Shown in pieces: positions 1,461 to 32,000 of a stretch of DNA of 32,000 nucleotides. The notes beneath the pieces were generated by a model that made no database searches, was not told the origin of the DNA, and saw only the letters and a program-made list of their open reading frames with translations. This stretch comes from Candidatus Saccharimonadota bacterium (GTDB lineage: Bacteria > Patescibacteriota > Gracilibacteria > UBA4473): positions 750,001 through 782,000 of the forward strand of contig JAUIFI010000001.1 of assembly GCA_030429505.1 (NCBI GenBank). Reading direction: 5' to 3'. Numbering within the stretch: the stretch's first letter is position 1; every line of letters begins with the position of its first letter. The position numbers and the translations under genes are program-made.

Positions 1461-3248
1461 ATGAAATACACCACCCAAGATTTAAGAAAACTGTGGCTTG
1501 ATTTTTGGAAATCCAAAAATCACGTAATCATTCCCAGTAGCGGCGTCATACCAGAAAACGATCCTTCGGCCCTTTTCCATAACTCAGGTATGCACCCACT
1601 CGTCCCATTTCTCATGGGCGAAGATCATCCAGCTGGAACGAGACTCGCTAACGTTCAAAAATGCATCCGCACCGGAGACATAGACGAAGTCGGAGATAAA
1701 ACTCATCTGACCTTTTTTGAAATGCTCGGAAATTGGTCTCTCGGAGATTATTTTAAAACCGAGCAAATCCAATGGTCTTTTGAATTTTTGACCCAAGTAC
1801 TCAATATCCCTATCGAAAAACTCGCCGTATCAGTTTTTGCTGGAGATAAAGACGCTCCGCGAGACAACGAATCCTTTGAAATCTGGAAAAAATGCGGCAT
1901 ACCGGAAAACCGAATCGCCTTTCTCGGCAAAGAAGATAACTGGTGGTCCAAGGGTGATGTCGGTCCTTGTGGACCAGACACAGAAATGTTTTACTGGACA
2001 GGAACAGACAAGGCTCCTGACAACTTCCAAGATACTTGTACCAATCCACACTGGGTCGAAATATGGAACGACGTTTTTATGCAATTTAATAAAGATGAAA
2101 AAGGAATACTCACCCCGCTTCCTCAAAAAAATATCGACACCGGGATGGGACTAGAACGAACAGTCGCCGTGCTTAACGGACTTTCCTCCATATATCAAAC
2201 TGACGCCTTTACATCGATCCTGCAAAAAATTGCTGAACTGTCGGGAAATCAAACACTCGCTACCGATCCTCTCGGAACTACAGAAGCGCATACATCAGCA
2301 CGAATCTTGGCCGATCATCTACGATCAGCTGCCATATTACTCGGAGATCGAATTGCACCATCCAATACTGATCAAGGCTACATCCTTAGACGCCTCATCC
2401 GCCGAGCAATCAGACACGGGAAAAAGCTAAATATTGATCAAAAATTTTGTTCAAAAATTGTACATGTCGCAATTAAAAATTTATCAAATACCTACTCAGA
2501 ACTCACAAAAAACGAAAACTTCATCATCGAAGAACTCGAGCGAGAAGAACATCAATTTGGCAAAACTTTGCACTCTGGAGAAAAAGAGTTTCGAAAAATG
2601 ATTGATAAATCACCCGACTGTGTCATCTCTGGAACCATCGCTTTTCACATTTACGAAACCTATGGATTTCCTTTGGAAATGATTGTAGAACTAGCCAAAG
2701 AACTCGGAAAAACTGTAGACACATCAGCCTTCGAATCTGCATTTCAATCCCATCAAAAAAAATCACGAGAAGGAGCTGAAAAAAAATTTTCTGGAGGACT
2801 CGCTGATCATTCTCAAGAAACCGTAAAACTTCATACCGCCACGCATCTCCTTCATGCAGCACTCAGAAAAGTATTAGGACCCCACGTAGAACAACGAGGA
2901 TCAAATATCACCCCCGAACGCCTTCGTTTCGATTTTTCCCATCCAGACAAGATGACACCCGAACAAATCACTGAAGTAGAAAAATACGTCAATGATGCCA
3001 TAGCATCAAACGCTCCCGTAACCTGTAAAGAAACCACGGTCGATCAAGCCAAAGCAGAAAATGCCATCGGACTCTTTGAAGATAAGTACGGAGACAAAGT
3101 AAAGCTCTACACCATGGGAGAATTTTCCAAAGAAATCTGCGGCGGACCTCATGTAGAACACTTAGGAGTTTTAAAATCCTTTAAAATCAAAAAAGAACAA
3201 AGTGCTAGCCAAGGAATACGAAGAATAAAAGCAGTTGTTGGAAAATAA
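1461..3248 (+). CDS. alaS: alanine--tRNA ligase, shortened form (595 aa; no C-Ala domain)
   Basis: Class II AlaRS N-terminus (DLRKLWLDFWKSKNH..., FFEMLGNWSLGDYFK, GPCGPDTEMFY, DTGMGLER). Editing-site HxxxH (HTATHLLHAAL) and CGGPHV motifs near the C-terminus. Confidence 0.95.
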   Translation: MKYTTQDLRKLWLDFWKSKNHVIIPSSGVIPENDPSALFHNSGMHPLVPFLMGEDHPAGTRLANVQKCIRTGDIDEVGDKTHLTFFEMLGNWSLGDYFKTEQIQWSFEFLTQVLNIPIEKLAVSVFAGDKDAPRDNESFEIWKKCGIPENRIAFLGKEDNWWSKGDVGPCGPDTEMFYWTGTDKAPDNFQDTCTNPHWVEIWNDVFMQFNKDEKGILTPLPQKNIDTGMGLERTVAVLNGLSSIYQTDAFTSILQKIAELSGNQTLATDPLGTTEAHTSARILADHLRSAAILLGDRIAPSNTDQGYILRRLIRRAIRHGKKLNIDQKFCSKIVHVAIKNLSNTYSELTKNENFIIEELEREEHQFGKTLHSGEKEFRKMIDKSPDCVISGTIAFHIYETYGFPLEMIVELAKELGKTVDTSAFESAFQSHQKKSREGAEKKFSGGLADHSQETVKLHTATHLLHAALRKVLGPHVEQRGSNITPERLRFDFSHPDKMTPEQITEVEKYVNDAIASNAPVTCKETTVDQAKAENAIGLFEDKYGDKVKLYTMGEFSKEICGGPHVEHLGVLKSFKIKKEQSASQGIRRIKAVVGK

Positions 3249-3597: not shown

Positions 3598-6171
3598 TCA
3601 ATCTTCTATTTCAATTTGCTCTTGCTGAGACTTAGTTGATTCTTCTAAATCCTCAATCAAAGAAATTGATGATACAAAATCCTTACCAGATGGTCGCATT
3701 AAAATTACTCCTTGAGTAGAACGACCAGCTGTTTTAACTGTATCAAGCGGAGTTCGAAGTGTCTGACCATTTTTAGTAACCAAGAGCAAATCAGCACTCT
3801 CATTACCATCAATAACTCGTGCTCCTACAATCTTACCAGTCTTTTTCGTAATATTAGCCGCCTTTACCCCAGTACCTCCACGAGACTGATTTCGAAAAAG
3901 CTTCACCTCAGACATTTTCCCGAGCCCATTCTCCATCACCACCAATAGCTTTGCTTCTTCATTTTTCAACACATCCATAGCTACCACCTCATCACCAGAT
4001 CGCAACTTAATACCACGTACACCTGCAGCTGTCCTTCCCATAGCCCGCACATCAGCCTCTGCGAAACGAATCGACTTTCCTTCTTTCGTAACAATAAAAA
4101 TCTGATCATTCCCTGTCGAAACCTTAGTCCACTGCAACATCTCTCCCTCCTTCAGATTACAGGCAATTAATCCCGAGCGACGAACATTGTCAAAATGATC
4201 TAAAGCAGATTTTTTAATGGTCCCTCCTGTTGTACACATCACGATATATTTCCCTTCTGAACGAGAGATATTAAGAATCTCAGTAACCTTTTCTTGAGGT
4301 TGAAGTTGTAACAAATTCACAATCGGAGTCCCCTTTGAAGTCCGAGAACTCTCCGGGATCTCATACATTGGGAGCTGAAAAACTCGACCTAAATTTGTAA
4401 AAAACAAAAGCTCATTATGATTAGTACCAAAACGAGCCTTAACAATTTGATCCTCCTCCTTTGTCTTAGCTCCCACCACTCCCACTCCTCCACGTTTTTG
4501 TGAACGAAAAACCGATGGATTCATTCTCTTTACATAATTCTGTTCCGTCAAAACCACCAACATTTCTTCATCCGGAATAGTATCCTTGGCACTAAATTTG
4601 CCCAAAGCATGAGGATATACCTTTGTTCGACGTTCATCACCAAATTTTTCCTGAATTTCTTTCAGTTCTTGCTCAATAATATCAGCCTGTTTAGTTTTAT
4701 CAGCCAAAATACCCTCCAATTCTTCGATCAAAGCAAGTTTTTCTTTCAACTCATCCTCAATTTTCTGACGTTCAAGCCCTGCCAAAGTCTGCAATCGCAT
4801 CTCCAAAATGGCCTTAGCTTGAATTTCAGTAAGTTGAAATTTTGATATCAATTGCTCAGCCGCAATTTCTTTCGTTTCCGATTTTCTAATCGTCGCAATC
4901 ACCTCATCAATGTGATCGAGAGCAATTTTAAGTCCTTCTAAAATATGAGCACGAGCCTTTGCCACCTTCAAATCAAACTCCGTTCGCCTCTGAATCACCT
5001 CAAATCGATGATCGAGAAAATAATTCAAGACTTCAGGCAGATTCAACAACCGTGGATGAATTCCATCCACCAGAGCAATCATATTTAAGTTGTATGTTTT
5101 TTGCAGCAACGTGTATTTGAATAACTTATTCAAGGTTTTTTGAGCATAAGCATCACGCTTCAGTTCAATGTAAATCCGAATCCCTTCTCGATTCGACTCA
5201 TCCCTCAAGTCAGAAATGCCTTCTATCTTTTTATCTCGAACAAGATCAGCAATTTTCATAATCAGATCTGCCTTATTTACCTGATAAGGAATCTCTGTCA
5301 CAATGATAGCTTGTTTTCCTCCTTTAAGCTCCTCAATATGAGTTTTTGCTCGAGTAACAACTCCCCCTCGACCCGTAGCATACATTTCACGCAAAGCTCC
5401 TCCGTCATAGAGTTCTCCTCCCGTCGGAAAATCAGGTCCTTTTACAAACTGAAGAAGATCATCCACTGTTGCTTCTGGATTACGAAGAAGATGGGCTGTT
5501 GCCTGAAGCAATTCATTCAAATTATGCGGAGGGATATTCGTCGCCATCCCCACAGCAATTCCCATAGTTCCATTGAGAAGAAGTTGAGGTACTTTACTCG
5601 GTAACACCGATGGTTCCTCTGCCGTAGAATCATAGTTAGGGCGAAAATCAACCGTTTCTTTTTCAATATCAGACAAAAGCAAATCTGACATTTTTGTCAT
5701 TCGGGCTTCTGTATAACGCATCGCTGCCGGATTATCCCCATCGATAGAACCATAATTCCCCTGTCCATCAATAAGAGGATATCTCAGACTAAATTCTTGA
5801 GCCATCCGCACCATAGACATATAGACCGCCGCATCACCATGAGGATGATATTTCCCCAAAACTGCCCCCACAACTGTCGCAGACTTTCGATATTTGGCAC
5901 TAGAACGAAGTCCATTTTCATGCATAGCATACAAAATACGACGATGCACCGGCTTCAAACCATCACGCACATCAGGCAAAGCCCGACTAACAATCACTGA
6001 CATCGCATACGAAATATACGACTCCTCCATATCCACCGATATTTCGCGAGTCAAAACCCGTCCCTCATCCATCGCTCCCAAATCAAGCGTTAGAGAAGAA
6101 TCTTCACCTTCTTCAGGCAGGTTATTTTCATCATTTTCATTTTCCAAAGGAGCTTGCGATTCGTCAGTCAT
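3598..6171 (-). CDS. gyrA: DNA gyrase subunit A
   Basis: GyrA motifs ([24 protein letters not shown], active-site AAMRYTE) and C-terminal beta-pinwheel repeats. Track ORF extends to 6195, but that ATG overlaps a TACAAT -10 box, so MTDESQ (6171) is the preferred start. Confidence 0.93.
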
Positions 6172-10309: not shown

Positions 10310-10384
10310 TCCGGGGTAGCTCAGCGGTAGAGCAAGTGGCTGTTAACCACTTGGCCGCCGGTTCGAATCCGGCCCCCGGAGCCA
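10310..10384 (+). tRNA. tRNA-Asn (anticodon GUU), CCA encoded
   Basis: Cloverleaf read by eye. Acceptor TCCGGGG/CCCCGGA, D-stem GCTC/GAGC, anticodon stem AGTGG/CCACT with loop CTGTTAA, T-arm GCCGG-TTCGAAT-CCGGC, discriminator G plus CCA. Confidence 0.95.
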
Positions 10385-10955: not shown

Positions 10956-12368
10956 TTAGTCATAAGCTCTAACACTGTTTTTAATAATCTCATCAATTTT
11001 GTTTCTTTCGCTTTCAATTTTTGTTTTCATTGCTTCTTGTCGGTCTAATTCGGCTTTGATTTCATCAACGATTTTTTGTTGAATTTTTAAATCAGGAATA
11101 GGAAGAAAGAAATTATTTAATTCTTCACCTGAAATTTTTACCATTGTTTGATTTTTTCCTTTCGCCGAATATTTAAAATAAAATCTTCCAATTACAGAAT
11201 TAAAAACAAATGCTAAATATTCTTTATTTATATAGTTCTCATCTAATTCAACTCTGATAAATAAATCAGGGAAAATAAAATCCGTATCTTCGGAAATATT
11301 TTTTACTACTGAGGCAAGAGCCACTAAATCAACTGTGTTTCCTCTACTTACAAAAAAATCACTCTCTTTAGCAAAAAAGTTTCCAATATCATCTCTTGAT
11401 TCATCAGAATATTTTAAATCTTCAAAAATAATATTTCCTGTTTTTGAAATGGAATTTACCCCAAAAACAGAATATTCACTATCTGATTCCTTACAGTTTG
11501 GAGACCAACCATTTTTTGTAGATACAATATATTTTCCGAGTTTCTCAATGCAATCAGTATTTTGATATAAAGTTTTTTGAATAGGGGCTATTTTCTGCCA
11601 TCTTACACTCGACCTTAAATTTCGATTTCTAAAACTTATATCATTGGAAACATTAAGATACTTTGTTTTTTCAATTTTTTTAACCTCCTCCAAATCAAAC
11701 CCAAATTCTCTCGCAAAGACCTTATTTATAATTTCTTGCGGTGGTGTGATTTGTGCTTTTAATTCTTTGATTTTCCTTTCAATCGGTTCAATTTGGGCAA
11801 TAATTTGGTCTTGTTTTGATTTTGAAATTAAAGGGATTTTAATTTTTAGTAAATCAATTGGATTAACTCTTCTATGAGTTTTTCCACTTTCCAATTTAGC
11901 GAGGTCGGAAAGAAATTCAATTGAAGTTATTAAATAATAAACAAACAACGGGTTGTGGTTTCCTGAAATGGAGTATTCCAAAAATTCAGTAGAACCGATA
12001 AATTTTTTGTGTTCTGTATTCAAAAAAATGTTTCCCATTTGCGGTTGCATTTTGGGAATAACAATATCGCCATCCTGCAAAATATTTTTATCAGAACCAA
12101 TTTCACTAACTTTTTCAAAATTTACTAAGTTGTTAAATCTTCTCTCAATATTTCCAATATCAAGTAAGTATTCTTCATTTTCTAACTCCCCTTTAGTTAC
12201 TCTTTGAGTTGGAATTTCTTTTAAAACATATTTCAATTTAATGAGCTTATCAAAGCTATAAATAATTGCATTTTGAATATCAAAAAAATATCTATAACCA
12301 ACATTGGGTCTTAAAAACTCTTGCTTCCCAATGTTTTGAAAGTCTGTTGTAAAAATTTTTAATCCCAT
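10956..12368 (-). CDS. hsdS: restriction-modification specificity (S) subunit, HsdS family, two target-recognition domains
   Basis: Two TRD-like halves, each followed by the conserved coiled-coil spacer (IPLISKSKQDQIIAQIEPIERKIKELKAQI and LPIPDLKIQQKIVDEIKAELDRQEAMKTKIE). Start overlaps the upstream methyltransferase stop by 10 nt. Confidence 0.85.
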   Translation of the reverse strand: MGLKIFTTDFQNIGKQEFLRPNVGYRYFFDIQNAIIYSFDKLIKLKYVLKEIPTQRVTKGELENEEYLLDIGNIERRFNNLVNFEKVSEIGSDKNILQDGDIVIPKMQPQMGNIFLNTEHKKFIGSTEFLEYSISGNHNPLFVYYLITSIEFLSDLAKLESGKTHRRVNPIDLLKIKIPLISKSKQDQIIAQIEPIERKIKELKAQITPPQEIINKVFAREFGFDLEEVKKIEKTKYLNVSNDISFRNRNLRSSVRWQKIAPIQKTLYQNTDCIEKLGKYIVSTKNGWSPNCKESDSEYSVFGVNSISKTGNIIFEDLKYSDESRDDIGNFFAKESDFFVSRGNTVDLVALASVVKNISEDTDFIFPDLFIRVELDENYINKEYLAFVFNSVIGRFYFKYSAKGKNQTMVKISGEELNNFFLPIPDLKIQQKIVDEIKAELDRQEAMKTKIESERNKIDEIIKNSVRAYD

Positions 12369-14746
12369 TGTACTTCTCTTAAAAAATCTAAAGCGGTTTC
12401 TTTTACGTCATCATCAACCAGAATTTCGCCGTTTTCGTTTAAACGGTAAAGTTCATTCGGCATTGATTTTTCGCCTCTTTTGGTTCTTTTGTAACCAACA
12501 TTTTCTACTTCTGCCATAAAGATTTTATGATTGAGCCCTTTGGCAACTTCGCCAAAAACCCACCAAGTGTTTACAAAACCAAAAATATCTTTTGTGTCTT
12601 TATCAAACTTACAAAGTTCTTCTAATTCATCTTTGTATTTTTCAACTAAATTTTTGGCAGCAAGTTTTTGATCTTCATCTTCCATATAATCTTTGAGCAT
12701 TCTGGCTAAAATTGCTTGTTCTTCTTTTTCGGTCAAATCTTTGATGGAAGGCAATTTTGTGCGATCTTTCTTTTTTAGATAAACCGCCAATAAGTTTTCA
12801 CATCTGGTTTTCAAATTACTCCATTCGTTTGAATATTTGCTCCAAAAATTATTCCATTCCGCAACTTCGGCTTTGGTTTTCTTTTGAATAAAAAGCAAGC
12901 TGGTTTTGGTACTAGTAAACGGTTCAAATGTAACTTGTGGCAAACTTACAACGGCTTTTACTTTGAAATATTTGTAAATAAAAAGTCGGATGTATTTATT
13001 TTCAGTCGTATCAAAAACACTCTCGGGCAAAACAATTCCTGCCCGTCCGTTTTCTCTTAAAAGCTGGTAATATCTTTCTATAAATAAATTTTCGGAATTT
13101 TTTTTATCGCCAAAAACAAAAGATGATTCTAATGTTCTTTTTGTATCATTATCAAGATCAACACTAAAAGGTGGGTTGGTTATTATTGCATCAAACGATT
13201 CATTTACATCTTTAGAATAAACTAAACTATCTTTTGATTGATCTAAAACATTTTCGCCAGATATTTTTTGATACTTTGAAAATTTTGAAAGCCCATCTCC
13301 TTTACTGCTTCCCACAAAAATATTTGCAGACCCATCTCCATGCAAAATCATATTTACTTTTACAGAAGTTCCTAAATTTGGGTTTATCTCACTTCCATAA
13401 ATAAACTTTTCTGCCCACATGTTTTCTAATTCATCAGGATAGAAATTTCTTTGTAAAAAGGCTTGTATATTTCTTGAATCCTCTATTTTATCTTTAAATC
13501 TGTATTTCACAACATGGGTAATAAATTTCATGTATTCAATAAGGAAAGAGCCACTACCAGCACTTGGATCAATTAAATAAGGAATTTCCAAATCTCGGTT
13601 TACTCGCTGAATGGCTAATTTATCCAGTTGTAAGCCCCAAAGCAAAAATCTAACTACGTTGATATGAGTAAAAAATTGTCCTTTTGATTGCTTAAAACCT
13701 GTGGAAATAATATTTTCAAAAAAATCTCCCAAAATATCTTTTCCATTTGGCAATTTGTTTCCCAGTGTAAAGGAGTATTTCTCTAATTCAGATACTGCAA
13801 ATTTCAATTTTGTTAAAGAGAATTTCTTTCTTTCTACTACAAAACTTTCTTTTAACTCATTTTCATCAACAATATTCAATCTTTGTTTTAAAGCTCTTCG
13901 GTAAAGTTCGTTAATTCTCCCAAAAAGCTCTTCATTGGTTTCAAAGCTTTCGCCGTTCTTAAAAGCAAAAATTTGGAAATCATATTTTTCGCCTTTTTTC
14001 TTTTCCGATTCATCTTGAATTTTGGCAAGAATGATATTTACCAAAGAAGAAAAAACATCATTGTCATCTGTTCCGCCACCACCCCAAAGCACATTGTGTA
14101 GATTTTTTCTAAGTCCATCTAGTTGGTCGTGAGTAAAGTTTGTTTCTAAATCTTTTTCTTCACTTCCTTTAATGTACGGTTCTTTTTGTGCCTTTTCGTA
14201 TCTTTCCGGCAATTTATCTGCAAAATTCCTTACATCTTTCCAAGAATCAAAAGAAGTGAATTTTTCATAATCAATCAAAATACATTTATCCCTGATCTCA
14301 TTTTCGATTATTTCAAAAGTATAAAGCACCAAATATTTTACATTTCCCCCCTGCCCTTTTTCTTGTGAAGCCAGATTAAAAAGTTGTTTTTCAATAACTT
14401 CATCTTTGTCTTTTTCATAATCTTGAGGGCTTTTTAGTTCAATATACAAAAAGGCATTACCCTTATCGTCTCTAACAATAACATCTATTCTAGGTTTATT
14501 TACTTTTGGTCTTCCAATATCATACTCTTTCTCAATCTCAATATTTTCTGGTTTATAACCAAGTTCATTAACTAGTTTAGAAAGAATAAAAGCCCTTACG
14601 ATTTCTTCATCTCCAGTAATCTTTTTAATTTCTCGATGTTGTTTAATTGAATTTGAATATTTTAGCTTTTGCTCTTCAAGTTTATAAGTTTCGACAATTT
14701 TTATTTTTTGATTGTCTAAATATTGTTTTACAACCCGAAAATTCAT
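12359..14746 (-). CDS. gamma-class N6-adenine DNA methyltransferase fused to an N-terminal PD-(D/E)XK-like domain (candidate type IIB/BcgI-like RM subunit)
   Basis: Motif I DPSAGSGSFL lies upstream of motif IV ITNPPFS. The N-terminal ~170 aa carry PRIDVIV...AFLYIELKSP, a D...E-x-K nuclease-fold signature of the HsdR-N type. At 795 aa it is much longer than a plain HsdM. Confidence 0.8.
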   Translation of the reverse strand: MNFRVVKQYLDNQKIKIVETYKLEEQKLKYSNSIKQHREIKKITGDEEIVRAFILSKLVNELGYKPENIEIEKEYDIGRPKVNKPRIDVIVRDDKGNAFLYIELKSPQDYEKDKDEVIEKQLFNLASQEKGQGGNVKYLVLYTFEIIENEIRDKCILIDYEKFTSFDSWKDVRNFADKLPERYEKAQKEPYIKGSEEKDLETNFTHDQLDGLRKNLHNVLWGGGGTDDNDVFSSLVNIILAKIQDESEKKKGEKYDFQIFAFKNGESFETNEELFGRINELYRRALKQRLNIVDENELKESFVVERKKFSLTKLKFAVSELEKYSFTLGNKLPNGKDILGDFFENIISTGFKQSKGQFFTHINVVRFLLWGLQLDKLAIQRVNRDLEIPYLIDPSAGSGSFLIEYMKFITHVVKYRFKDKIEDSRNIQAFLQRNFYPDELENMWAEKFIYGSEINPNLGTSVKVNMILHGDGSANIFVGSSKGDGLSKFSKYQKISGENVLDQSKDSLVYSKDVNESFDAIITNPPFSVDLDNDTKRTLESSFVFGDKKNSENLFIERYYQLLRENGRAGIVLPESVFDTTENKYIRLFIYKYFKVKAVVSLPQVTFEPFTSTKTSLLFIQKKTKAEVAEWNNFWSKYSNEWSNLKTRCENLLAVYLKKKDRTKLPSIKDLTEKEEQAILARMLKDYMEDEDQKLAAKNLVEKYKDELEELCKFDKDTKDIFGFVNTWWVFGEVAKGLNHKIFMAEVENVGYKRTKRGEKSMPNELYRLNENGEILVDDDVKETALDFLREVQWD

Positions 14747-14965
14747 TTTTTTAACTATGAGCTACTCGGAGTATAATCCAATTTCCGTTTTATTTAAACT
14801 AGCATTGAAACAAATTTCAAAAAACCAATTTCTTTCTCTTAAAACTATCGACGCCCTAAATCTCTAGTATTTTTATACTATTTGAGTTTAAGAAAAATTA
14901 AAATCCGCTTCAATACACTTTTTGGATAAAATAAGATAGTATTTAGGTAATAAAAATACCTCAAA

Positions 14966-15241
14966 ATGACCAAAATAGTTACCTCCAATATCGACACCAC
15001 TACCAAAGAAGCCGCCGAAGCAGTCTTTGACCAAATGGGACTTACCACCAGTAGCGCCATCAAACTTTTTCTCAACCAAGTCGCTACCACAAAATCCATT
15101 CCCTTCCAACCAACCACCATCACAAAACCCGGCTTCACATCAGAACAAAAAACAACTCTCCTTCAAATGATACAAGACGCCAAACAACAAAAATCACACG
15201 ATCCATTCGCTGTCATAGATGAAATGTTTGGACGTCTATAA
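14966..15241 (+). CDS. RelB/DinJ-family type II antitoxin (no cognate toxin adjacent)
   Basis: N-terminal ribbon-helix-helix pattern typical of DinJ (SNIDTTTKEAAEAVFDQMGLTTSSAIKLFLNQVATTKSIPFQP). Confidence 0.65.
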   Translation: MTKIVTSNIDTTTKEAAEAVFDQMGLTTSSAIKLFLNQVATTKSIPFQPTTITKPGFTSEQKTTLLQMIQDAKQQKSHDPFAVIDEMFGRL

Positions 15242-15279: not shown

Positions 15280-15308
15280 TTGACTATTTATTAAATATAT
15301 GTTAAAAT
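15280..15308 (+). promoter_or_regulatory. candidate promoter (TTGACT-17-TAAAAT) ending 6 nt before the ATG at 15315
   Basis: Hexamers at 15280..15285 and 15303..15308. The spacing implies a leaderless or near-leaderless transcript. Confidence 0.35.
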
Positions 15309-15314
15309 AAAAAA

Positions 15315-17546
15315 ATGAGAAGAATTGTCTGGCATCTTATAGTTTTCGCCATTTCAATAAGCGTAAACACCTTATTTCCAAAACAAGCCATCGCTCAAAA
15401 CTACAATCTAGTGAGTCACAATATCGGCTCTTCTATCGAATCAAGTACCCTTAGTAGCACAAATTTTTCTGGGAACACCGTACTCGAAAACACCAGTAAT
15501 CTAGAAGAAAACCAAGCAGAAACAACCTCAAGTCAGACATCATCATCAAGCTCACAAAGCTCTGGAGGAGGAAAATACAACGCCTCTTCCTGGCTCCTAG
15601 AAAGAATATATAAAGATCACAAAAAACAACAAAAAGAAGAAAAAGCCGTCACCACTCCCCCTAAAAAGCAACTCTCTTTTTCATCATCACCATCTACTGT
15701 TTTAAAAGAAGAAGAAGAAGAAGCACATACCCCATCAATTTCTCCACAATTAAAATCAACAAACGCAAAACCAGAAGAAAGTCCTACACAAAAATCTCAA
15801 CCATCAAATAACCCAAGACAAGAATACATCACCAATCTCATCGAAAACATAAACCAAAGATCTAAATCAATAAAAGCCAGAGGAGAAGTAACCAAGAAGT
15901 TGAATCTTCAAGATCTCAAAACATCAAGTATTCAACATCCACAAGAAACCACGAATATATTTGAACCAATTCGTATTTGTATCGAAAGCGAAGTACTCGA
16001 AGACCTCAGTCTCACATGGGTTGAAAAATTTATATTTCCCAAAAAATACGCCTACGCCGATTCCTACACATCAAATAATTCCTGTGAACTCATACTCCAT
16101 GACAACGGACACTTAGGACTTTTTATGGCAAAATCAAATGCACATCAAAACATGATCAGCGTCATGTTTATCGGGATATTAATCCTCATCGTAATGAATA
16201 TTAGAACTTCTCTTCTGATCCGAAAACAGAACAACACATTAAACAAGAATATCCACACACACTTTAAAAGCCATCCCATAAGAAAATGGAAAGTGCGACA
16301 TCCTCTCCTTATACTCGCCATAATCTTTTGCTTCGGAGTATTTTGGTTTTCCATTGGAACAGCTCACGCCCAAAACATCACTACTCCTCAAAAAATCGTC
16401 TACTCCGGTCAGCTCAAAGACAGCCAAGGAAACTTCCTCAATGGAGAATACCACTTTCGATTTAGTGCCTGGTCTAGCCAAGACTACCAAGAAGCTGACA
16501 TGACCTCCAATGAAATCAACGAAAGCCGTCCTGCCTATCTCGGCTGGAAAGAAATTCAGCTCGTTACTCTCGTCAATGGTCATTTTTCACTTTATCTAGG
16601 AGATATAACAAGCTTTCCATCAAATCTTTTTGATCGAGCAAATGTCTACCTACACATTGAAGTAAAACAAAAAAATCAACCCAACAGCGCCTTTGAGACA
16701 CTCGACGTCAACGCAAATGATGCAACGAAAGACCGACTCCTCTTTCATTCAGTCCCACACGCTATCAACGCTGATAAAATAGATTTCCGAGATACTGGAT
16801 TTGATGCGGGAAACATTCCACATCTAAATAACAATGCAAGATTACCAATCAGCACTATCCCGGGAGGAACCAATCAAAGCACCTTTACTTTAGATAAAAA
16901 TGACGACGCTGAAGCGGGAGAAAGTTTGATCTTAAAATTTGGTGAAACTCTCGCCAAAACACTCTCCTGGAGTAATCTCCTCAACCGCTTCGAATTCAAC
17001 GACACCGTAGCCATATCAGGAAATTTGATCGTCAGTGGAACCATCAACGGACAAAATCTAGGGACAACACAAACCACAGACACACTTATTCCTCGATACC
17101 CAAACTCCATCTTCATAGCCGATGGAACCAACAACAAAGGGTCTCTCTATGAAGAAAACGATCCCAACGGGGGGAACGTATTTCGATGGAGTACAAGCCA
17201 AAACAACCTCCAAGACTACACGATTCAAATCCGCTATGTCCTCCCATCAAATTTTGTACAATTTGCCCCTTCCAACCAGATATCAATTGATCTCAAGACC
17301 GAAGGAATATCATCTCAGTCCAAATTAGATGCAACTATAGAAAAAGACGGAGTATCAAACACAGATCAACTGGAAGGAAATGGCATCGCTCTATCAAATA
17401 GCAACTGGACCACACAAAATCTCACCCTCAAAAGCGACACCAACTGGTCCGCTGGAGACACACTCATTTTTTCGATAAAGCCCTATGCATCAAACGGATT
17501 TGATGCACACGTCAGTACGATCAAGATTCGATACATCACTCGTTAA
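15315..17546 (+). CDS. surface protein P1: signal peptide, low-complexity spacer, TM hairpin, fibre-like C-terminal half
   Basis: Signal peptide ending AIA-QN. S/T/P/E/K-rich region. Two TM segments around a basic loop, the second ending AHA-QN. The C-terminal half shares module N and module C with the neighbouring genes. Confidence 0.8.
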   Translation: MRRIVWHLIVFAISISVNTLFPKQAIAQNYNLVSHNIGSSIESSTLSSTNFSGNTVLENTSNLEENQAETTSSQTSSSSSQSSGGGKYNASSWLLERIYKDHKKQQKEEKAVTTPPKKQLSFSSSPSTVLKEEEEEAHTPSISPQLKSTNAKPEESPTQKSQPSNNPRQEYITNLIENINQRSKSIKARGEVTKKLNLQDLKTSSIQHPQETTNIFEPIRICIESEVLEDLSLTWVEKFIFPKKYAYADSYTSNNSCELILHDNGHLGLFMAKSNAHQNMISVMFIGILILIVMNIRTSLLIRKQNNTLNKNIHTHFKSHPIRKWKVRHPLLILAIIFCFGVFWFSIGTAHAQNITTPQKIVYSGQLKDSQGNFLNGEYHFRFSAWSSQDYQEADMTSNEINESRPAYLGWKEIQLVTLVNGHFSLYLGDITSFPSNLFDRANVYLHIEVKQKNQPNSAFETLDVNANDATKDRLLFHSVPHAINADKIDFRDTGFDAGNIPHLNNNARLPISTIPGGTNQSTFTLDKNDDAEAGESLILKFGETLAKTLSWSNLLNRFEFNDTVAISGNLIVSGTINGQNLGTTQTTDTLIPRYPNSIFIADGTNNKGSLYEENDPNGGNVFRWSTSQNNLQDYTIQIRYVLPSNFVQFAPSNQISIDLKTEGISSQSKLDATIEKDGVSNTDQLEGNGIALSNSNWTTQNLTLKSDTNWSAGDTLIFSIKPYASNGFDAHVSTIKIRYITR

Positions 17547-17598
17547 AACAAAAAAATTCATCACATCCTATGAGGGCTTATTTTTTTGTATAAAAAAT

Positions 17599-17626
17599 TT
17601 GTCCTGAAACTCTAAATCCATAGAAT
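17599..17626 (+). promoter_or_regulatory. candidate promoter (TTGTCC-16-TAGAAT) ending 5 nt before the ATG at 17632
   Basis: Hexamers at 17599..17604 and 17621..17626. Confidence 0.3.
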
Positions 17627-17631
17627 ATTAA

Positions 17632-18546
17632 ATGAATATTAAACACTATATGTTTTCTCGATACAAATTTTGGATAGTATGGATCGCTTTATGTTTTTCG
17701 CTAGGAGTAACTCTAATAACATCTCCATCAGCACAAGCGAATCTGTATTTTTCCCTCGAACAAGACGGCACCTTCGCCACCAACTTTACCCTTGACCAGG
17801 GAAATATTGCTACCACCTTTATCGACCTTATCTTTGGCACGACCAGCGCACAACTACGCTATGATGTATCATTAACAAAATTCATTCTCAATAAAGCTCT
17901 TCAACTTAGCGGGACAGGAACGGTATTAGAGCTCGGAGACGGAACGTCTAATGACTTTGCTTTATCCTTCAATGACGGCAATGCACGAACGCTCACATGG
18001 GACGACGCCAGTACTCGCTTTACCTTCAATACTGCCACCCGCATCGAAGGCAATCAAGCTACCGTCGGACAAACCTACATTGCTTCCGACCACGCGGCTT
18101 CAGATAGTGATGGAATAGTCAATATCGGACGAAATGCCAGCACGTGGGAAAACATCACCTTTGATGCCACAACAGACGATCAGTTTGAAGTCAGTGACAA
18201 TGTTGAAGTAACTGGGTCCATCTTGTCGACTGAAGTAGAAAAAACAACCGCATCCACCATAGCCATTGACTGGGAAGAGGCTAACCAACAGTCGATAACA
18301 CTCAACCAAACCGGACATACTGTTACTTTTTCTAATTACAATCCAGGACAGACGTTACGTTTAATAGTCTGCCAAGATGGCACGGGGTCCAGAACTATTA
18401 CCACCTGGCCTTCCGTCATAGACTGGGCAAGTGCAACAGCTCCGACTTTAACGACTACTGCCAATAAATGCGATGTCATGACCTTCCTCACCACCAATGA
18501 AAGAGGAAATGTAGAAGTCTTTGGTTCTTATGTTCTGAATTTTTAG
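17632..18546 (+). CDS. secreted protein P2: two copies of module N plus C-terminal beta-rich domain
   Basis: Signal peptide ending SAQA-NL. Module N at 17740..17919 is about 45% identical by eye to 20278..20457. A second weaker copy lies at 17950..18054. The stop TAG is immediately followed by the ATG of the next gene. Confidence 0.8.
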   Translation: MNIKHYMFSRYKFWIVWIALCFSLGVTLITSPSAQANLYFSLEQDGTFATNFTLDQGNIATTFIDLIFGTTSAQLRYDVSLTKFILNKALQLSGTGTVLELGDGTSNDFALSFNDGNARTLTWDDASTRFTFNTATRIEGNQATVGQTYIASDHAASDSDGIVNIGRNASTWENITFDATTDDQFEVSDNVEVTGSILSTEVEKTTASTIAIDWEEANQQSITLNQTGHTVTFSNYNPGQTLRLIVCQDGTGSRTITTWPSVIDWASATAPTLTTTANKCDVMTFLTTNERGNVEVFGSYVLNF

Positions 18547-20085
18547 ATGAAACAATCTGGAAAAAATACCATTACACACATTCTCCTAGCATCAATAACA
18601 CTTATGTGGGTAATGATCGGGTCTCCACGCATCTTTGATTTTCCACTAAAGCTAGAGCACGTCCAAGCCGCCAGTACACTTGGACATAGCGCAATCTATC
18701 GAGACTCAAATGGAACACATGATACGAATAATGCCACCTATACGGGCGTCCCTTTTAATGTGCAACAAACGCAAGATGCCACCTTCACACAAAATGCCAA
18801 TGATATTGATATCGACTTAGCTGATAGCGGACGATACTTGTTTGGATACACAATCCAATCAAGAAATGATAGCTATACTAATCGAGTTTCCTATCGTTCT
18901 CGGGTAACTTTGGGTGGAACCGAACAAGTAGTAGGTCATGGACAGGGTTTTCGGAGAAGTGCAGTCGATGATCGCTATCACTCCTACGGCTATGGAATCA
19001 TCAATGCCAGTGCTGGAGAAGATTTTCGAGTAGAAGTGATTCGTCAGGGAACAAATGATCCCAGCACCCATTTACTCGAAGCCAATCGATCATCAATGTG
19101 GCTATTAAAGCTTGATGATACCTGGGATTACTTACGTCTACAGGGAGCAGACAATCAAGCAACCACTGTCACCAAACAAACCATCAACTTTACGAACCTT
19201 GTCGAGAATACCAATACATCAACTTTTAGTCATGATACAGGCACAAATCCCCATCAAATCACCCTTAAAGAAGCAGGGCATTATTTGATAACCTACAACG
19301 TAGGAGTCGATGGTTCAGAAAATCGAACCTCGATTACCACCAACCTTGATATGAATGGAACAGATATTCCACAATCATTTGATTATGCATATATCCGAAG
19401 TAGCGACGATACCACAGAAGGTACCGCTACCAACATGACGATTCTGGAAGCCAATGCCAACGATATCTTGACCCTCGAATGGGGAGCTCTCGATAACAAT
19501 AGTGCCAATGGAACCAATACTATGAGCGATCGAACTGCCATTACGATCGTAAAGCTTCCTGACAGCGCTGACTATTTACGAGCTTATGAAGCAGGAGGAG
19601 GTCAAAGTTTAAATAATACAACAACGACAACAGTAATCTTTGACACTCAAAGCGAAGCTGACAGCAGTTCTTTCAGTTACAACACAACATCAGGAGTAAC
19701 GACGATTCAACAAGATGGAAACTATCTCTTTACTCACGGTGCTCGGAGTGTACGAGACAATACAAATGCCCGTACAATGAGAGGAGGATTTTGGTATGTA
19801 AATGGTGTACAACAAACCGTTGGAAATACTGGTGTCTATATACGAGGAGATGGTGGTTCACAAGACTCGTTTGCTGGAGGGTGGTCAGCAGCTGGTCTTT
19901 TCTCTCTTTCAAACACCAATACTATTGATTTTCGCTACGAAGACCAAGGAGATGATGGTGGTGGTGGAACAGATTCCCTGCAAGCAAATTCCTACGGAAT
20001 TACAGCAGTGAACTTAAATACACTGTTTCCATCTGGCGACGATCCCACTCCCGCTGGAAATTTTTGGTTTGGAATGGGATTCTAA
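18547..20085 (+). CDS. membrane-anchored/secreted protein P3 with three tandem ~148-aa gC1q/TNF-like repeats
   Basis: N-terminal hydrophobic anchor. Repeat anchors G(R/H/N)YL at aa 95, 244 and 391, and DYLR at aa 194 and 342. Repeat 3 reads VIFDT...F.Y....G......G.YLFT, like gC1q domains. Confidence 0.8.
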   Translation: MKQSGKNTITHILLASITLMWVMIGSPRIFDFPLKLEHVQAASTLGHSAIYRDSNGTHDTNNATYTGVPFNVQQTQDATFTQNANDIDIDLADSGRYLFGYTIQSRNDSYTNRVSYRSRVTLGGTEQVVGHGQGFRRSAVDDRYHSYGYGIINASAGEDFRVEVIRQGTNDPSTHLLEANRSSMWLLKLDDTWDYLRLQGADNQATTVTKQTINFTNLVENTNTSTFSHDTGTNPHQITLKEAGHYLITYNVGVDGSENRTSITTNLDMNGTDIPQSFDYAYIRSSDDTTEGTATNMTILEANANDILTLEWGALDNNSANGTNTMSDRTAITIVKLPDSADYLRAYEAGGGQSLNNTTTTTVIFDTQSEADSSSFSYNTTSGVTTIQQDGNYLFTHGARSVRDNTNARTMRGGFWYVNGVQQTVGNTGVYIRGDGGSQDSFAGGWSAAGLFSLSNTNTIDFRYEDQGDDGGGGTDSLQANSYGITAVNLNTLFPSGDDPTPAGNFWFGMGF

Positions 20086-20129
20086 AATATATAAAAAAAT
20101 AATTGTACAACTTCATCAATATATAATAT

Positions 20130-20158
20130 TTGCCTAATAAGCATAAAAAGGATACAAT
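20130..20158 (+). promoter_or_regulatory. candidate promoter (TTGCCT-17-TACAAT) for P4
   Basis: Hexamers at 20130..20135 and 20153..20158, 38 nt before the ATG at 20197. Confidence 0.4.
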
Positions 20159-20196
20159 GACCCGATTTTTTTCATATAAGTTTAACTTAGAAAGGA

Positions 20197-21636
20197 ATGA
20201 AACACATAAAGCAATTTCTAGCAGGAATACTTCTCGTATCATTAGGACTACTTACAAACGTTCCTGAGACTAGCGCACGCCTGATCTTTACTACCGAAGA
20301 AGATGGTACTAAATCTTCGGAATACCATATCGATCAAGGCGATAGTTCGAGTAGTAATATTGACTTAGCCTTTGGATCAAGCCTCACCAATCGATTACGA
20401 TACGACGTGTCTGCTGGAGAATTCAGCTTTAGCAAAGCCTTGAGTTTAGCCGGAAATGCTTTGAAAAACTTTATCATTGAAAAACTCGCCTCAGACCCCG
20501 CTACCTGCGACAGCTCTGCTGCGGGTCGAATGTACTACAAAACCGGAACTAATGAGATGATGTTTTGTAATGGTTCAGCCTGGACCGCCTTCGAAGCTGG
20601 AGGAATTTCTGATGGCTCCATTACAGGAGTCAAGCTCAATGCCGCTGTAGCTGGAAACGGGTTAGGGAAAGACGGATCAAACAATTTAGAAGTAAAAGTA
20701 GATGATTCAACTATCGAAATTGATACAGACGCCCTGCGAGTAAAAGATAGCGGAATCACCTCTGCTAAACTCGGAGCCGATGCCGTAACCGCTGCGAAAT
20801 TAAATGCTGATACTGCCGGCGCCGGTTTAGGACAAAATGGAGGGACTGGAGCTCTCGAAATCAACGTCGATGATACAGGTATTGAAATTAGCAGTGACAC
20901 TATTCAACTCAAAGACGGAGGCGTCGTCGCCGGAAAAATTGGAGCCGATGCCGTAACCGCCGCAAAATTAAATGCTGATACCGCCGGTTTAGGAATCGTT
21001 CAAAACGGAGGAACTGGAGCTCTCGACCTTAACGTCGATGACTCAACCGTAGAAATCAATAGTGACACCATCCAAGTAAAAGACGGAGGTATTACCTCCG
21101 CTAAAATCACGGACAATACCATTGCTTTTGCCGATATAGCCGAACGAGAAGTAACCTTCACCCTCACTCCTGAGTATCCAAATTTCTCACTCTATGCTGA
21201 CGGCACAAACAACGTCGGAACCATGAAGGCTGATTATGATAATACTGATGATCGAAATTATTACGAATGGTCCACCAAACAAGGAAGCGCTCAAGACTAC
21301 GATATCATCATTCAATGGCCGATTCCGGAAAACTTTCAGAGTTGGTCCTCAAGCTCAGATGAGATTCAGCTTGATGTCAAAAGCACCACCACCACAGCTG
21401 CCAATAACAAATTAGATATAACCTTGAGCGATACTGCCGGATCAGACGTAACCCTGACGGGTGGAACCGATATTGCCAGCTCTACTGCCGATACATGGAG
21501 AAACAACTACGGCATCACCTTTAGCGGCGGGACCTGGACTCCAGGGGGATACGCAACTATGAAAATAAAAATGACCGCCACCAATACCAACGCGATTCAA
21601 CTCGGAGAAATTCGATTCAACAGTCGAGTAAAATAA
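20197..21636 (+). CDS. secreted fibre-like protein P4: module N, Cys-loop motif, 3 x 56-aa repeats, module C
   Basis: Signal peptide (ETSA-RL). Module N at 20278..20457. C104...C124 motif (ATCDSSAAGRMYYKTGTNEMMFCNGSAW). Tandem repeats at 20605..21108. Module C at 21163..21633 is paralogous to 17085..17543. Confidence 0.85.
   Translation: MKHIKQFLAGILLVSLGLLTNVPETSARLIFTTEEDGTKSSEYHIDQGDSSSSNIDLAFGSSLTNRLRYDVSAGEFSFSKALSLAGNALKNFIIEKLASDPATCDSSAAGRMYYKTGTNEMMFCNGSAWTAFEAGGISDGSITGVKLNAAVAGNGLGKDGSNNLEVKVDDSTIEIDTDALRVKDSGITSAKLGADAVTAAKLNADTAGAGLGQNGGTGALEINVDDTGIEISSDTIQLKDGGVVAGKIGADAVTAAKLNADTAGLGIVQNGGTGALDLNVDDSTVEINSDTIQVKDGGITSAKITDNTIAFADIAEREVTFTLTPEYPNFSLYADGTNNVGTMKADYDNTDDRNYYEWSTKQGSAQDYDIIIQWPIPENFQSWSSSSDEIQLDVKSTTTTAANNKLDITLSDTAGSDVTLTGGTDIASSTADTWRNNYGITFSGGTWTPGGYATMKIKMTATNTNAIQLGEIRFNSRVK
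20605..21108 (+). repeat. three in-frame tandem repeats of 168 nt (56 aa) inside P4
   Basis: Units start at 20605, 20773 and 20941. Units 2 and 3 are roughly 80% identical at DNA level (ggagccgatgccgtaacc...). Unit 1 is more diverged. Consensus: KLNA..AG.GLG..GG...L...VDD...EI..D...(V/L)KD.G(I/V)...K(I/L). Confidence 0.85.
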
Positions 21637-21701
21637 ATAATCTCAATTCTAAAATCAGTCCAGAAAAACATTTCTGACATACTTGTTACGGAAAGCACAG
21701 A

Positions 21702-22742
21702 TTATGGCTGAAACTCAATGTGAGCCTCAAGAGCCTCCCGTGCTTTATCAGCCAGAGAAGATGCCAAAAGCTTAATATTCACCGCCATCTCTCGCATTTG
21801 TAATGGATCAGTTTGTTCTGCTTGATCAGCAAATCGCCAAGCATTTTGAGCAGCCTTAACAACATCTTCAAACAATGCATTCTCAGCCGCCGCATAAGCC
21901 CCCACCAAACTATTCACCGCCTCTACCGTCAGTGATACAGCCTGTGCCGTTACATTGTCTGGTGTAAGGGAAAGCAAAGCCTGACTATACTTTTTCGCCG
22001 CTACTACAGAAAACCCCGCCGTCATCACATCATTATGCTTTAAAACATCAAGCGCATAAACCAAATGACGTTCAGTAAGACTAGCAAAAAGCTGCGGATC
22101 TTTTAATCCATTCCCCTTGTACAATGTCTGGTACAAAATATGTGCAGCCAAGGAACGCGTCACCGGACGATCCGGAAAGATGTTCCCTTCATCATCCGGT
22201 TCCAAAATACCAAATTGCACCCCAAAAAGAAGCGAAGGCGCAAACCAGGCTTCATCAGGAACATCTTTCAAAGACACATTCAGCTGATAAACGGAAGGAT
22301 CAACTTCAAAAGCAGCTAAAACCATCTTAAAAAATTCAGCCAGATTCACTGGTCTGTGAGGAAAAAACTGTCCAGTTTCAGAACTACTCGAAACAATACC
22401 CTTCACAATAGCATGATTTACAAACGGAAGAAACCAAGCGCTCGAAGAAACATCAGAAAAAGTATTACTTCCTTCAACCAAAGATTCTTCTGTCGTAGCA
22501 ATAATAGTTTTAAGAGCCTCTACTCGATTAATCTGTTTTTCTACACCAAAAGTCCCATCACTATACCCTTTCATATATCCTTTTTCACCAAAATATTTAA
22601 TCGCAGTATAATGGGGATGAGAAACAGAAACATCCGTATACCCAGCAAGAGCTGTGTGAAAAACAAACATGCTTCCAATACCAAGCAAGAAAAAATTTTT
22701 TAAAACAATCGAAGATTTCATTAACCCCAGTATAAATACCAT
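21702..22742 (-). CDS. S-layer homology (SLH) domain protein, three SLH repeats plus Ala-rich helical C-terminus
   Basis: Three SLH-like units (YTDVSVSHPHYTAIKYFGEKGYMKGYSDGTFG; FSDVSSSAWFLPFVNHAIVKGIV; LKDVPDEAWFAPSLLFGVQFGILEPDDEGNIFPDRPVTR). N-terminal signal. Alternative start MKSS at 22721. Confidence 0.8.
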   Translation of the reverse strand: MVFILGLMKSSIVLKNFFLLGIGSMFVFHTALAGYTDVSVSHPHYTAIKYFGEKGYMKGYSDGTFGVEKQINRVEALKTIIATTEESLVEGSNTFSDVSSSAWFLPFVNHAIVKGIVSSSSETGQFFPHRPVNLAEFFKMVLAAFEVDPSVYQLNVSLKDVPDEAWFAPSLLFGVQFGILEPDDEGNIFPDRPVTRSLAAHILYQTLYKGNGLKDPQLFASLTERHLVYALDVLKHNDVMTAGFSVVAAKKYSQALLSLTPDNVTAQAVSLTVEAVNSLVGAYAAAENALFEDVVKAAQNAWRFADQAEQTDPLQMREMAVNIKLLASSLADKAREALEAHIEFQP

Positions 22743-31217: not shown

Positions 31218-32000
31218 TTTAAGGAGAGTTTGATCCTAGCTCAGGATGAACGCTGGCGGTGCGCCTAATACATGCAAGTCGAACGTGATCTTGTTGGATT
31301 TATTCAGCAAGTGAAAGTGGCGGACGAGCGAGTAATACATAAGAACCTGCCCTGTACTCGGGGACAACCCACCGAAAGGTGGGCTAATACCGGATAGTCT
31401 CGAAAGAGTAAAGCTTTTGCGGTACAGGAGGGGCTTATGGCTTATCAGTTTGTTGGTGGGGTAAAAGCCTACCAAGACTATGACGAGTAGCTGGTGTGAG
31501 AGCATGACCAGCCGCGATGGGACTGAGACACGGCCCATACTCCTACGGGAGGCAGCAGTAGGGAATCTTCCGCAATGGGCGAAAGCCTGACGGAGCGACA
31601 CCGCGTGAAGGATGAAGCATTTCGGTGTGTAAACTTCTTTTCTCGGGGAAGAAAATCTGACGGTACCCGAGGAATAAGCTCCGGCTAATTACGTGCCAGC
31701 AGCCGCGGTAATACGTAAGGAGCAAGCGTTATCCGGAATTATTGGGCGTAAAGCGTCCGCAGGCGGTGGAGAAAGTCTGTCATTAAATACCAGTGCTCAA
31801 CATTGGTGCTGTGATGGAAACTTCTACACTAGAGGATGGGAGAGGTATGTGGAATTGTGCAAGTAGGGGTAAAATCCGTAGATATGCACAGGAACACCAA
31901 AAGCGAAGGCAGCATACTGGACCATTCCTGACGCTCAGGGACGAAAGCGTGGGGAGCGAAACGGATTAGATACCCGTGTAGTCCACGCCGTAAACGATGC
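31218..32000 (+). rRNA. rrs: 16S ribosomal RNA, 5' portion (runs off the window end)
   Basis: AGAGTTTGATCCTAGCTCAG at 31225. ACTCCTACGGGAGGCAGCAG, GTGCCAGCAGCCGCGGTAATAC and GGATTAGATACCCGTGTAGTCC appear in the expected order. The 5' end is estimated by analogy to E. coli numbering. Confidence 0.97.

Follow-up and report, generated by a model that had tools for sequence, protein, structure and literature searches.

In a stretch of 32,000 nucleotides from a Candidatus Saccharimonadota bacterium (assembly GCA_030429505.1, contig JAUIFI010000001.1, positions 750,001 to 782,000; hereafter the window, in which all coordinates are counted from the first letter) we have analysed a cluster of four plus-strand genes for fibre-like proteins, here named P1 to P4, together with a convergent gene for a protein with SLH repeats. 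The cluster is a chromosomal, lineage-conserved and uncharacterised locus which is linked to the SLH gene and is partly related to phage receptor-binding proteins. We lean, with moderate confidence, towards reading its products as fibres of the cell surface, exported via Sec, probably trimeric and tipped by lectin-like domains, that would be functionally coupled to a wall-anchored SLH protein. An attachment or host-recognition role, to which the architecture and the lifestyle of the phylum both point, is plausible. The genes are placed as follows in the open reading frame (ORF) listing.

P1: 15315..17546, plus strand, 743 amino acids (aa), composite gene
P2: 17632..18546, plus strand, 304 aa
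P3: 18547..20085, plus strand, 512 aa
P4: 20197..21636, plus strand, 479 aa
SLH protein: 21702..22742, minus strand, 346 aa, convergent to P1-P4
Parts of the SLH protein: three SLH repeats at 22113-22640 and a helical C-terminal domain at 21705-22106, minus strand (Pfam SLH; orthologs)

The convergent protein matches PF00395 (SLH) in three stretches with E=2.9e-16 and 59.6 bits against a cut-off of 20.8, and its residues 35-227 match the structure of Bacillus anthracis Sap (3PYW) with E=1.5e-8. The three SLH domains which had been attributed to it in a preliminary description of this DNA are thus confirmed. The helical C-terminal domain of the orthologs carries a conserved motif around LVGAY...AA..AW..AD. 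No pyruvyl transferase of the CsaB-type family, which would serve to make the pyruvylated secondary cell-wall polymer as SLH ligand, was found with Pfam among the about 25 larger ORFs of the window.

Linkage of this gene to the fibre genes is seen from both sides. In the loci collected from the fibre side, an SLH gene is present beside P1-like or P4-like genes in eight out of nine, namely the window, L001, L004, L005, L006, L015, L016 and L017, the exception being L018. Named relatives belong to the Patescibacteria group, Candidatus Peribacteria and Candidatus Gracilibacteria, and some of the loci come from metagenome-assembled genomes (MAGs). Gene arrangements in the seven loci outside the window are given below.

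L001: P4-like gene and convergent SLH gene
L004 (GCA_039738875.1): P1-like fused gene, protein of module N plus neck, P4-like gene, convergent SLH gene
L005 (Patescibacteria group MAG): P1-like gene, P4-like gene, convergent SLH gene
L006 (Candidatus Peribacteria MAG): SLH gene divergent from P1-like and P4-like genes, and a protein of 2,708 aa with module N
L015: P1-like fused gene, protein of module N plus a fibrinogen-C-like domain, P4-like gene, SLH gene
L016 and L017: P1-like gene, N..C protein, N protein of ~900-1,050 aa, one or two SLH genes

Outside the fibre/SLH cluster the neighbourhoods of the syntenic loci differ. A flank of alanyl-tRNA synthetase (AlaRS) and GyrA genes common to the window and L005 was considered and rejected, as direct comparison gave no similarity; the synteny is therefore confined to the fibre/SLH cluster.

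From the other side, a search of metagenomes with the alignment of the SLH orthologs gave 80 loci, in which all ORFs were scanned with hidden Markov models (HMMs) of the fibre modules described below. Where the SLH protein possesses the C-terminal domain, a fibre-module gene is present in 44 of 64 loci, in 36 of the 40 with at least 5 kb of flank on one side and in 19 of the 20 with at least 5 kb on both sides. De-duplication of the well-flanked loci at 90% identity leaves 34 lineages, 30 of which have a fibre-module gene. The internal control, SLH proteins without the C-terminal domain, gave none in 16. The SLH gene and the closest fibre gene are separated by a median of 742 bp, and in the commonest layout the former is divergent from genes of the N'-N-C and N-C types, often with one of the type N-... 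as well. These counts and the short gap are strong evidence that the SLH protein and the fibres form a functional unit, and they bear out the link, and the synteny, for which the preliminary description had proposed a search.

The four plus-strand genes and the convergent gene for three SLH domains correspond in the ORF listing to what had been described, as does the direct junction of the P2 stop with the P3 start (TAG|ATG). The ORFs are uninterrupted under the standard code. A hydropathy scan detects an N-terminal hydrophobic segment in each of the five proteins, in keeping with the leader or anchor starts claimed for the fibre genes; judged by these leaders, the fibre proteins are predicted to be exported. 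Neither an LPXTG signal nor a lipobox cysteine was found in any of the five by regular-expression scan, which agrees with their reported absence, and collagen-like GXX runs of at least five triplets are likewise missing from all five. Scans for promoters and terminators gave sites not in excess of chance.

The fibre proteins are assembled from a small number of modules, located as follows.

P1 transmembrane segment (residues 275-303), K/R/H-rich loop and second leader (325-352): 16137..16370, plus strand (hydropathy scan)
P1 module N': 16386..16766, plus strand, residues ~358-484, HMM match E=4.6e-51
P1 copy of module N (connector): 16836..17066, plus strand, residues 508-584 (HMM, hhalign)
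P1 module C: 17067..17543, plus strand, residues 585-743, predicted jelly roll resembling a carbohydrate-binding module (CBM)
P2 module N (residues 35-95) and partial second copy (103-146): 17734..18069, plus strand (BLASTP, HMM)
P2 tip: 18202..18543, plus strand, residues 191-304, ~110 aa (PHROGs, HMMER)
P3 domains 1, 2 and 3: 18676-19122, 19123-19566 and 19567-20037, plus strand (hhalign)
P4 module N, neck, shaft and module C: 20278-20496, 20482-20604, 20605-21144 and 21145-21633, plus strand (homolog alignment, HMMs)
Tandem repeat in the P4 shaft: 20773..21089, plus strand, 168 bp (56 aa), 1.9 copies (Tandem Repeats Finder, 79% matches, score 417)

Module N is common to P2 (residues 20-94) and P4 (12-86) with 43% identity and E=4e-14 in BLASTP, and the copy in P1 (500-572) is related to that in P4 (21-89) with E=3e-4. 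Profiles of N and C were built from the homologs of the P4 and P1 families. The N HMM of the P4 family matches P1 at residues 508-574 with an independent E-value (i-E) of 5e-9, and P2 at residues 35-95 (i-E=4e-20) and 103-142 (i-E=1.6e-5), the latter being a partial second copy. Compared profile against profile in hhalign, the N of the P4 family and the connector of the P1 family are matched with a probability of 97.5% and E=9e-12. Module C is shared by P1 (572-727) and P4 (304-463) with 33% identity and E=1e-15 in BLASTP, and with E=1.5e-42 between the profiles. The sharing of N by P2 and P4 with weaker copies in P1 and P2, the sharing of C by P1 and P4, and the modular, fibre-like nature of the proteins, all previously perceived by eye, were therefore upheld. 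The further claim that all four proteins are paralogous holds through these shared modules for P1, P2 and P4; P3 was rejected as a paralog since it has no significant BLASTP or profile similarity to the others. Scans with BLASTP and HMMs found no N, C or N' module in P3, in the SLH protein or in other genes of the window. The fibre modules have no match above threshold in Pfam or NCBIfam, and the literature searched contains no description of the cluster or of its modules, so the proteins are uncharacterised as had been stated.

Module N' is a predicted beta-sandwich that would start the mature fibre of P1, and AlphaFold2 models it with a predicted local distance difference test score (pLDDT) of ~87-94. 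The preliminary description had likened this region (P1 residues ~358-484) to the N-terminal module of proteins annotated as tail-fibre-domain proteins. That identification could not be verified: N' has no match in Pfam, PHROGs or NCBIfam, in profile searches of PDB sequences or in tblastn searches of phage genomes, its sole named homolog is a 'hypothetical protein', and the candidate was accordingly dropped. Module C is a predicted jelly roll, modelled as part of monomers of P4 (six sequences; pLDDT 56 overall and mostly ~75-84 in module C) and of the fibre half of P1 (20 sequences; pLDDT 75.6, mostly 85-94 in module C). Its Foldseek matches in the PDB, which are weak, include CBM61 (2xom), CBM11, CBM86 and GH85 Endo-A (3fha) as well as the K2-2 tailspike (TSP; 8iq9) and the Kp7 gp52 fibre. 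At the level of sequence no family was found for module C. A structure search of BFVD gave weak matches only, to phage host-specificity and fibre proteins.

P4 represents the shafted type of fibre. Its five full-length homologs (P0002-P0006, 40-56% identity) have a single common architecture, which starts with a leader ending in AxA, followed by the mature N-terminus RLIFTTE... and module N. The neck contains two invariant cysteines within TCD..AGRMYY.T....FCNG..W, and module C is ~160 aa long. Insertions and deletions change the length of the shaft, so that the orthologs range from 422 to 623 aa and keep N, neck and C. The 168-bp duplication in the shaft is recent. Shaft sequences of ~290 other proteins, and of phage tail fibres such as the distal tail fibre of Thermus phage MN1, match that of P4, and some shaft-matched homologs bear adenovirus-shaft or YadA-stalk (PF05662) domains in Pfam; the neck matches a PHROG family of virion structural proteins with E=1e-5. 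Module C is 51-64% identical among the P4 orthologs and module N 44-62%. The expected hypervariability of the P4 tips was accordingly not borne out, and the hypothesis of a hypervariable tip was rejected: module C is conserved as much as N, and there is no sign of an arms-race tip. Variation arises instead through shaft length and module swapping. In the P4 ortholog of L005 an in-frame TAA interrupts module C at 11559-11561, and this gene is either a pseudogene or affected by an assembly error.

P1 is a composite protein with three hydrophobic segments (residues 3-22, 275-303 and 325-352). Residues 1 to ~310 comprise a leader, an S/K/E-rich low-complexity region, which would form an ectodomain, and a transmembrane segment; a basic loop, a second leader and the fibre part in the order N'-N-C follow. 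The second leader ends in AHA|Q, where cleavage would occur. Homologs of the fibre half are ~420-450 aa long when they start at the second leader and ~700 aa when the N-terminal part is fused to it. The succession of transmembrane segment, loop and second leader recurs in P0123-P0126 and P0130, while the parts of P1 are held in L005 by three separate genes of 308, 117 and 417 aa. As judged from its sequence, P1 is two proteins fused into one, a membrane-anchored protein of low complexity and a fibre with a leader of its own. The internal second leader together with the existence of fused and split forms is suggestive of two possibilities: signal peptidase may cut P1 as a polyprotein, or a membrane hairpin may tether the fibre.

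P2 consists of a leader, module N, the partial second N and a C-terminal tip which is different from module C. Tail fiber protein families of PHROGs match P2 at residues 193-304, with E=1.8e-10 for phrog_9017. In an exhaustive HMMER search with P2, 7,659 representative proteins scored E<=1e-3, and for the large majority of the best 150 it is the tip that aligns; the tip is therefore probably carried by thousands of representative proteins. Among the best hits, 107 of 141 copies of the tip lie within 10 aa of the C-terminus, in carriers of 107 to 2,457 aa. Pfam gave no family for the tip, either in P2 itself or in the eight carriers tested.

P3 is built differently, from a leader and three tandem domains of ~150 aa, and is without an N or C module. 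The domains are related to each other in hhalign with E=2.5e-15, 5.6e-10 and 2.1e-12. Pfam BclA_C is matched with E=2.7e-8 and 34.2 bits, which is under the cut-off of 38, and this family is matched by six of ten members of the P3 family. Sequence searches of the PDB with P3 and P4 gave no match. The database version of P3 (P0145, 490 aa) begins at Met23 and lacks the leader (18547-18612), and the full 512-aa form has no exact counterpart in the protein collection; since all P3 homologs have leader-like N-termini, the ATG at 18547 is the likelier start. Longer P3 homologs are represented by L012 (8120-11995) and by P0147-P0152. By eye, these have a C-terminal extension ending in the WxL-like motif ..CYWDLTG...YTINLTLT, and beside them are small proteins in which similar motifs are seen, together with a membrane protein of DUF916-like type. 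This layout recalls the WxL surface-protein loci of Firmicutes; the P3 of the window has no such extension.

The same kit of modules is found in other combinations elsewhere, namely N-neck-tip, N'...tip, neck-N-C, N..N-N-neck-P3-type and N'-N-N-P3-type, and in other genomes the P3-type domain serves as the tip of N/neck fibres. Within the clusters module N is common and the C-terminal domains vary between C, the P2 tip and fibrinogen-C-like, Gly_rich_2 and P3-type domains. In L015 a protein of 410 aa (3677-4909) joins module N to a COLFI/fibrinogen-C-like C-terminal domain assigned by precomputed Pfam; it is a eukaryote-type recognition head on a bacterial fibre base. In MAGs of Saccharimonadia (L007, L008 and L011), module C is the terminal domain of giant open reading frames, with lengths of >3,500 aa (truncated by the contig end) and 2,046 aa, and other large proteins nearby, of 876 and >1,550 aa, have N' at their start. 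The presence of both modules in these MAGs indicates that the kit extends to Saccharibacteria.

The cluster is surrounded by housekeeping genes. In the flanks we identified a KhpB/Jag-like protein, AlaRS, GyrA, a cyclophilin, a methyltransferase and tRNA-Asn; a type I restriction-modification pair (HsdS and HsdM), RelB, a flavodoxin and the alpha and beta subunits of 2-oxoacid:ferredoxin oxidoreductase; and, towards the end, YidC, RnpA and the 5' part of a bacterial 16S rRNA gene, of which ~780 nt (31218-32000) are present before it runs off the window. The AlaRS (1461-3248) has only 595 aa, with catalytic and SAD domains and no further Pfam match, which is consistent with a reduced genome. 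A stretch of low GC content (0.29-0.31, as compared to 0.37-0.47 elsewhere in the window) at 10956-15241 holds the specificity subunit and methylase of the type I restriction-modification system and the RelB antitoxin. It lies just downstream of tRNA-Asn (10310-10384) and directly upstream of the fibre cluster, and looks like a horizontally acquired defence islet.

On the basis of this architecture we propose how the locus may work. P1, P2 and P4 would be exported via Sec and would be built from one kit of N', the ~60-aa module N, neck, shaft and tips, with module C (CBM/lectin-like) and the P2 tip as alternative C-terminal beta-sandwich tips. P3 would add three C1q/BclA_C-like domains; such domains form the tips of fibres in other genomes. 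Three SLH repeats would hold the SLH protein on a wall polymer, and its helical C-terminal domain would most likely meet the fibres near the wall, as their partner or dock. All fibres of a cluster contain module N at or near the mature N-terminus, which makes it the prime candidate for the end that docks or assembles, while the C-terminal tips would be directed outward and bind glycans or proteins of other cells or surfaces. Phage fibres, shafts of the adenovirus and YadA types and C1q-like heads suggest by analogy that the fibres may be trimeric. We infer the orientation of the fibres, their docking on the SLH protein and the binding of a ligand or host. A more far-reaching version is possible and is offered only tentatively. 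It would be a dedicated two-component apparatus of Patescibacteria of the Peribacteria/Gracilibacteria type, with the SLH protein as the socket into which trimeric fibres are plugged via N and N', whose combinatorial tips (CBM-, phage-fibre-, C1q- and fibrinogen-like), of common ancestry with phage receptor-binding proteins, would set the partner cells of the episymbiont. It would serve as a second host-recognition system besides type IV pili.

Several observations weigh against the reading of the cluster as SLH-coupled surface fibres with outward tips. L018 has the arrangement of L016 and L017 with a CAP-domain protein in place of the SLH protein. The leaders of the fibres look cleavable, which leaves no evident covalent or membrane anchor. 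Confidence of the monomer AlphaFold2 models is low outside N' and C, the shafts included, and the fold matches of module C have E-values of only ~1e-4 to ~3e-4 and target-normalised template modelling scores of 0.15-0.56. The module C tip is not hypervariable among the P4 orthologs, which argues against a rapidly evolving host-range determinant. Homologs of P3 are found in unrelated contexts, for example in a polysaccharide locus, and P3 is therefore probably an accessory passenger here. Finally, proteins that carry module C or the P2 tip, with lengths from ~107 to >3,500 aa, have it almost without exception at their very C-terminal end. Such placement is also typical of wall-anchoring or sorting domains.

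This last point leads to the opposite orientation, in which module C and the P2 tip would be anchors to the wall or S-layer, like the domains of WxL proteins, the cell-wall-binding (CWB) type or the type IX secretion system (T9SS), and N' and N would be exposed. The terminal position of the two domains in diverse carriers would suit this arrangement, the CBM-like fold of module C could bind a wall polysaccharide, and the conservation of module C to the same extent as N among the P4 orthologs would agree with it. We nevertheless consider it rather unlikely. The P2 tip is common to phage tail-fibre families, where a wall anchor would be senseless; module N is constant and the C-termini differ per cluster, and the reverse is expected if the C-terminus docks on a common base; and the C-terminal position is also held by P3-type C1q-like domains, which are classic distal heads. 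The proteins might alternatively be structural parts of the envelope, forming the lattice or struts of an S-layer or sheath held by the SLH protein, with no specific role in cell binding. The tight and conserved association with the SLH gene and a cluster core which is conserved and not hypervariable fit this possibility, and for the candidate phyla radiation (CPR) and Peribacteria both S-layers and the genes for them have been reported (PMC4736985). However, lattice proteins are unlike these fibres with their variable shafts of phage-fibre repeats and interchangeable lectin- or C1q-like tips, and the number of fibres and the type of tip differ between lineages, which makes a purely structural role improbable in our view.

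It is quite improbable, too, that the fibres are released as soluble glycan-binding proteins or effectors (lectins, toxins or nutrient scavengers), with an SLH gene that is co-regulated and physically unlinked to them. That the fibres are linked to a single subfamily of SLH proteins (in 30 of 34 lineages, as opposed to none of the 16 controls) is hard to explain unless the two are coupled at the wall, physically or functionally, and shafts are unusual among soluble lectins; the cleavable-looking leaders, the CBM-like and C1q-like folds of the tips and the lack of LPXTG, lipobox and SLH repeat in the fibres themselves would be in favour of release. A remnant of the tail fibres of a prophage or tailocin is brought to mind by the matches of the P4 shaft to phage tail fibres, of the P2 tip to PHROG tail-fibre families and of the P4 neck to a virion structural family. 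The resemblance is limited to the P4 shaft and, through the PHROG profile, the P2 tip. The 32-kb window contains no phage gene, in particular no baseplate or tail gene; IMG/VR contains no relative of the P1 or the P4 family; tblastn of P1, P2 and P3 against the 50,697 phage records of INPHARED gave no match; and among the phage genomes or viral contigs scanned there is no relative of N', N, C or P3. The cluster also occurs in differing chromosomal contexts across lineages in company with the SLH gene, and all of its proteins have secretion leaders. Fibres of phage virions do not carry these. In view of the housekeeping flanks and the absence of relatives from the phage and viral collections, a prophage or tailocin origin was rejected and appears extremely improbable.

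The SLH-linked fibres can be compared with several known systems. Like phage tail fibres, they have a conserved N-terminal part, a shaft of repeats that varies in length, and beta-sandwich tips which are exchangeable and stand at the C-terminus; the shaft of P4 and the tip of P2 are homologous to fibre parts and module C resembles the folds of tailspikes and fibres. They differ in their housekeeping context, Sec leaders and SLH linkage, and in that N', N, C and P3 are without phage relatives. BclA filaments of the B. anthracis exosporium have a collagen-like stalk and a C1q/TNF-like head and are attached to the basal layer by the N-terminus. N-terminal attachment and a trimeric C-terminal jelly-roll head are proposed here as well, and six of ten members of the P3 family match BclA_C; however, the cluster has no GXX stalk, P3 itself falls below the Pfam cut-off and has three tandem domains and no stalk, and the organism is not a spore former. 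With SLH-anchored S-layer proteins (Sap/EA1, BSL) the locus shares three SLH repeats homologous to those of Sap (3PYW), which by analogy presumably bind the cell wall non-covalently. Here, in contrast, the repeats belong to a small protein of their own, which ends in a helical domain, and are missing from the fibres; we know of no description of an SLH adaptor and fibres as a two-component arrangement. Trimeric autotransporter adhesins such as YadA are similar in the logic of head and stalk, and some of the shaft-matched proteins bear PF05662. These adhesins are anchored C-terminally, so the polarity proposed here is opposite, and P1-P4 lack a YadA-like membrane anchor or beta-barrel, with no Pfam match to a C-terminal YadA-like barrel even at E<=1.

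In the phylum itself, studies of Gracilibacteria and Saccharibacteria stress type IV pili. Peribacteria genomes are reported to code for S-layer genes and for large extracellular proteins that might serve in attachment (PMC4736985), and genomes of Absconditicoccaceae for 8-10 SLH proteins, thought to contact the host (PMC13059738). The giant surface proteins of Peribacteria, Absconditabacteria and Saccharibacteria resemble the present fibres in phylum, predicted export and proposed role in attachment, and module C ends Saccharimonadia proteins of >3,500 aa. The reported giants are cysteine-rich or contain FN3, integrin or ConA domains, and neither the N'/N/neck/C kit nor the SLH linkage is found in PMC4736985 and PMC13059738 as far as these were searched.

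Apart from type IV pili, little is known of the means by which ultrasmall Patescibacteria recognize and hold their partner cells, and the locus provides concrete, conserved and testable candidates for this function. It supplies a specific subfamily of SLH proteins, tightly linked to fibre genes, and six or more modules that are uncharacterised. Should the fibres prove to be adhesins, the host range could be predicted from their tips with no more than a genome at hand. Their homology in part to the receptor-binding proteins of phages would, in addition, bear on the exchange of surface modules between phages and cells.

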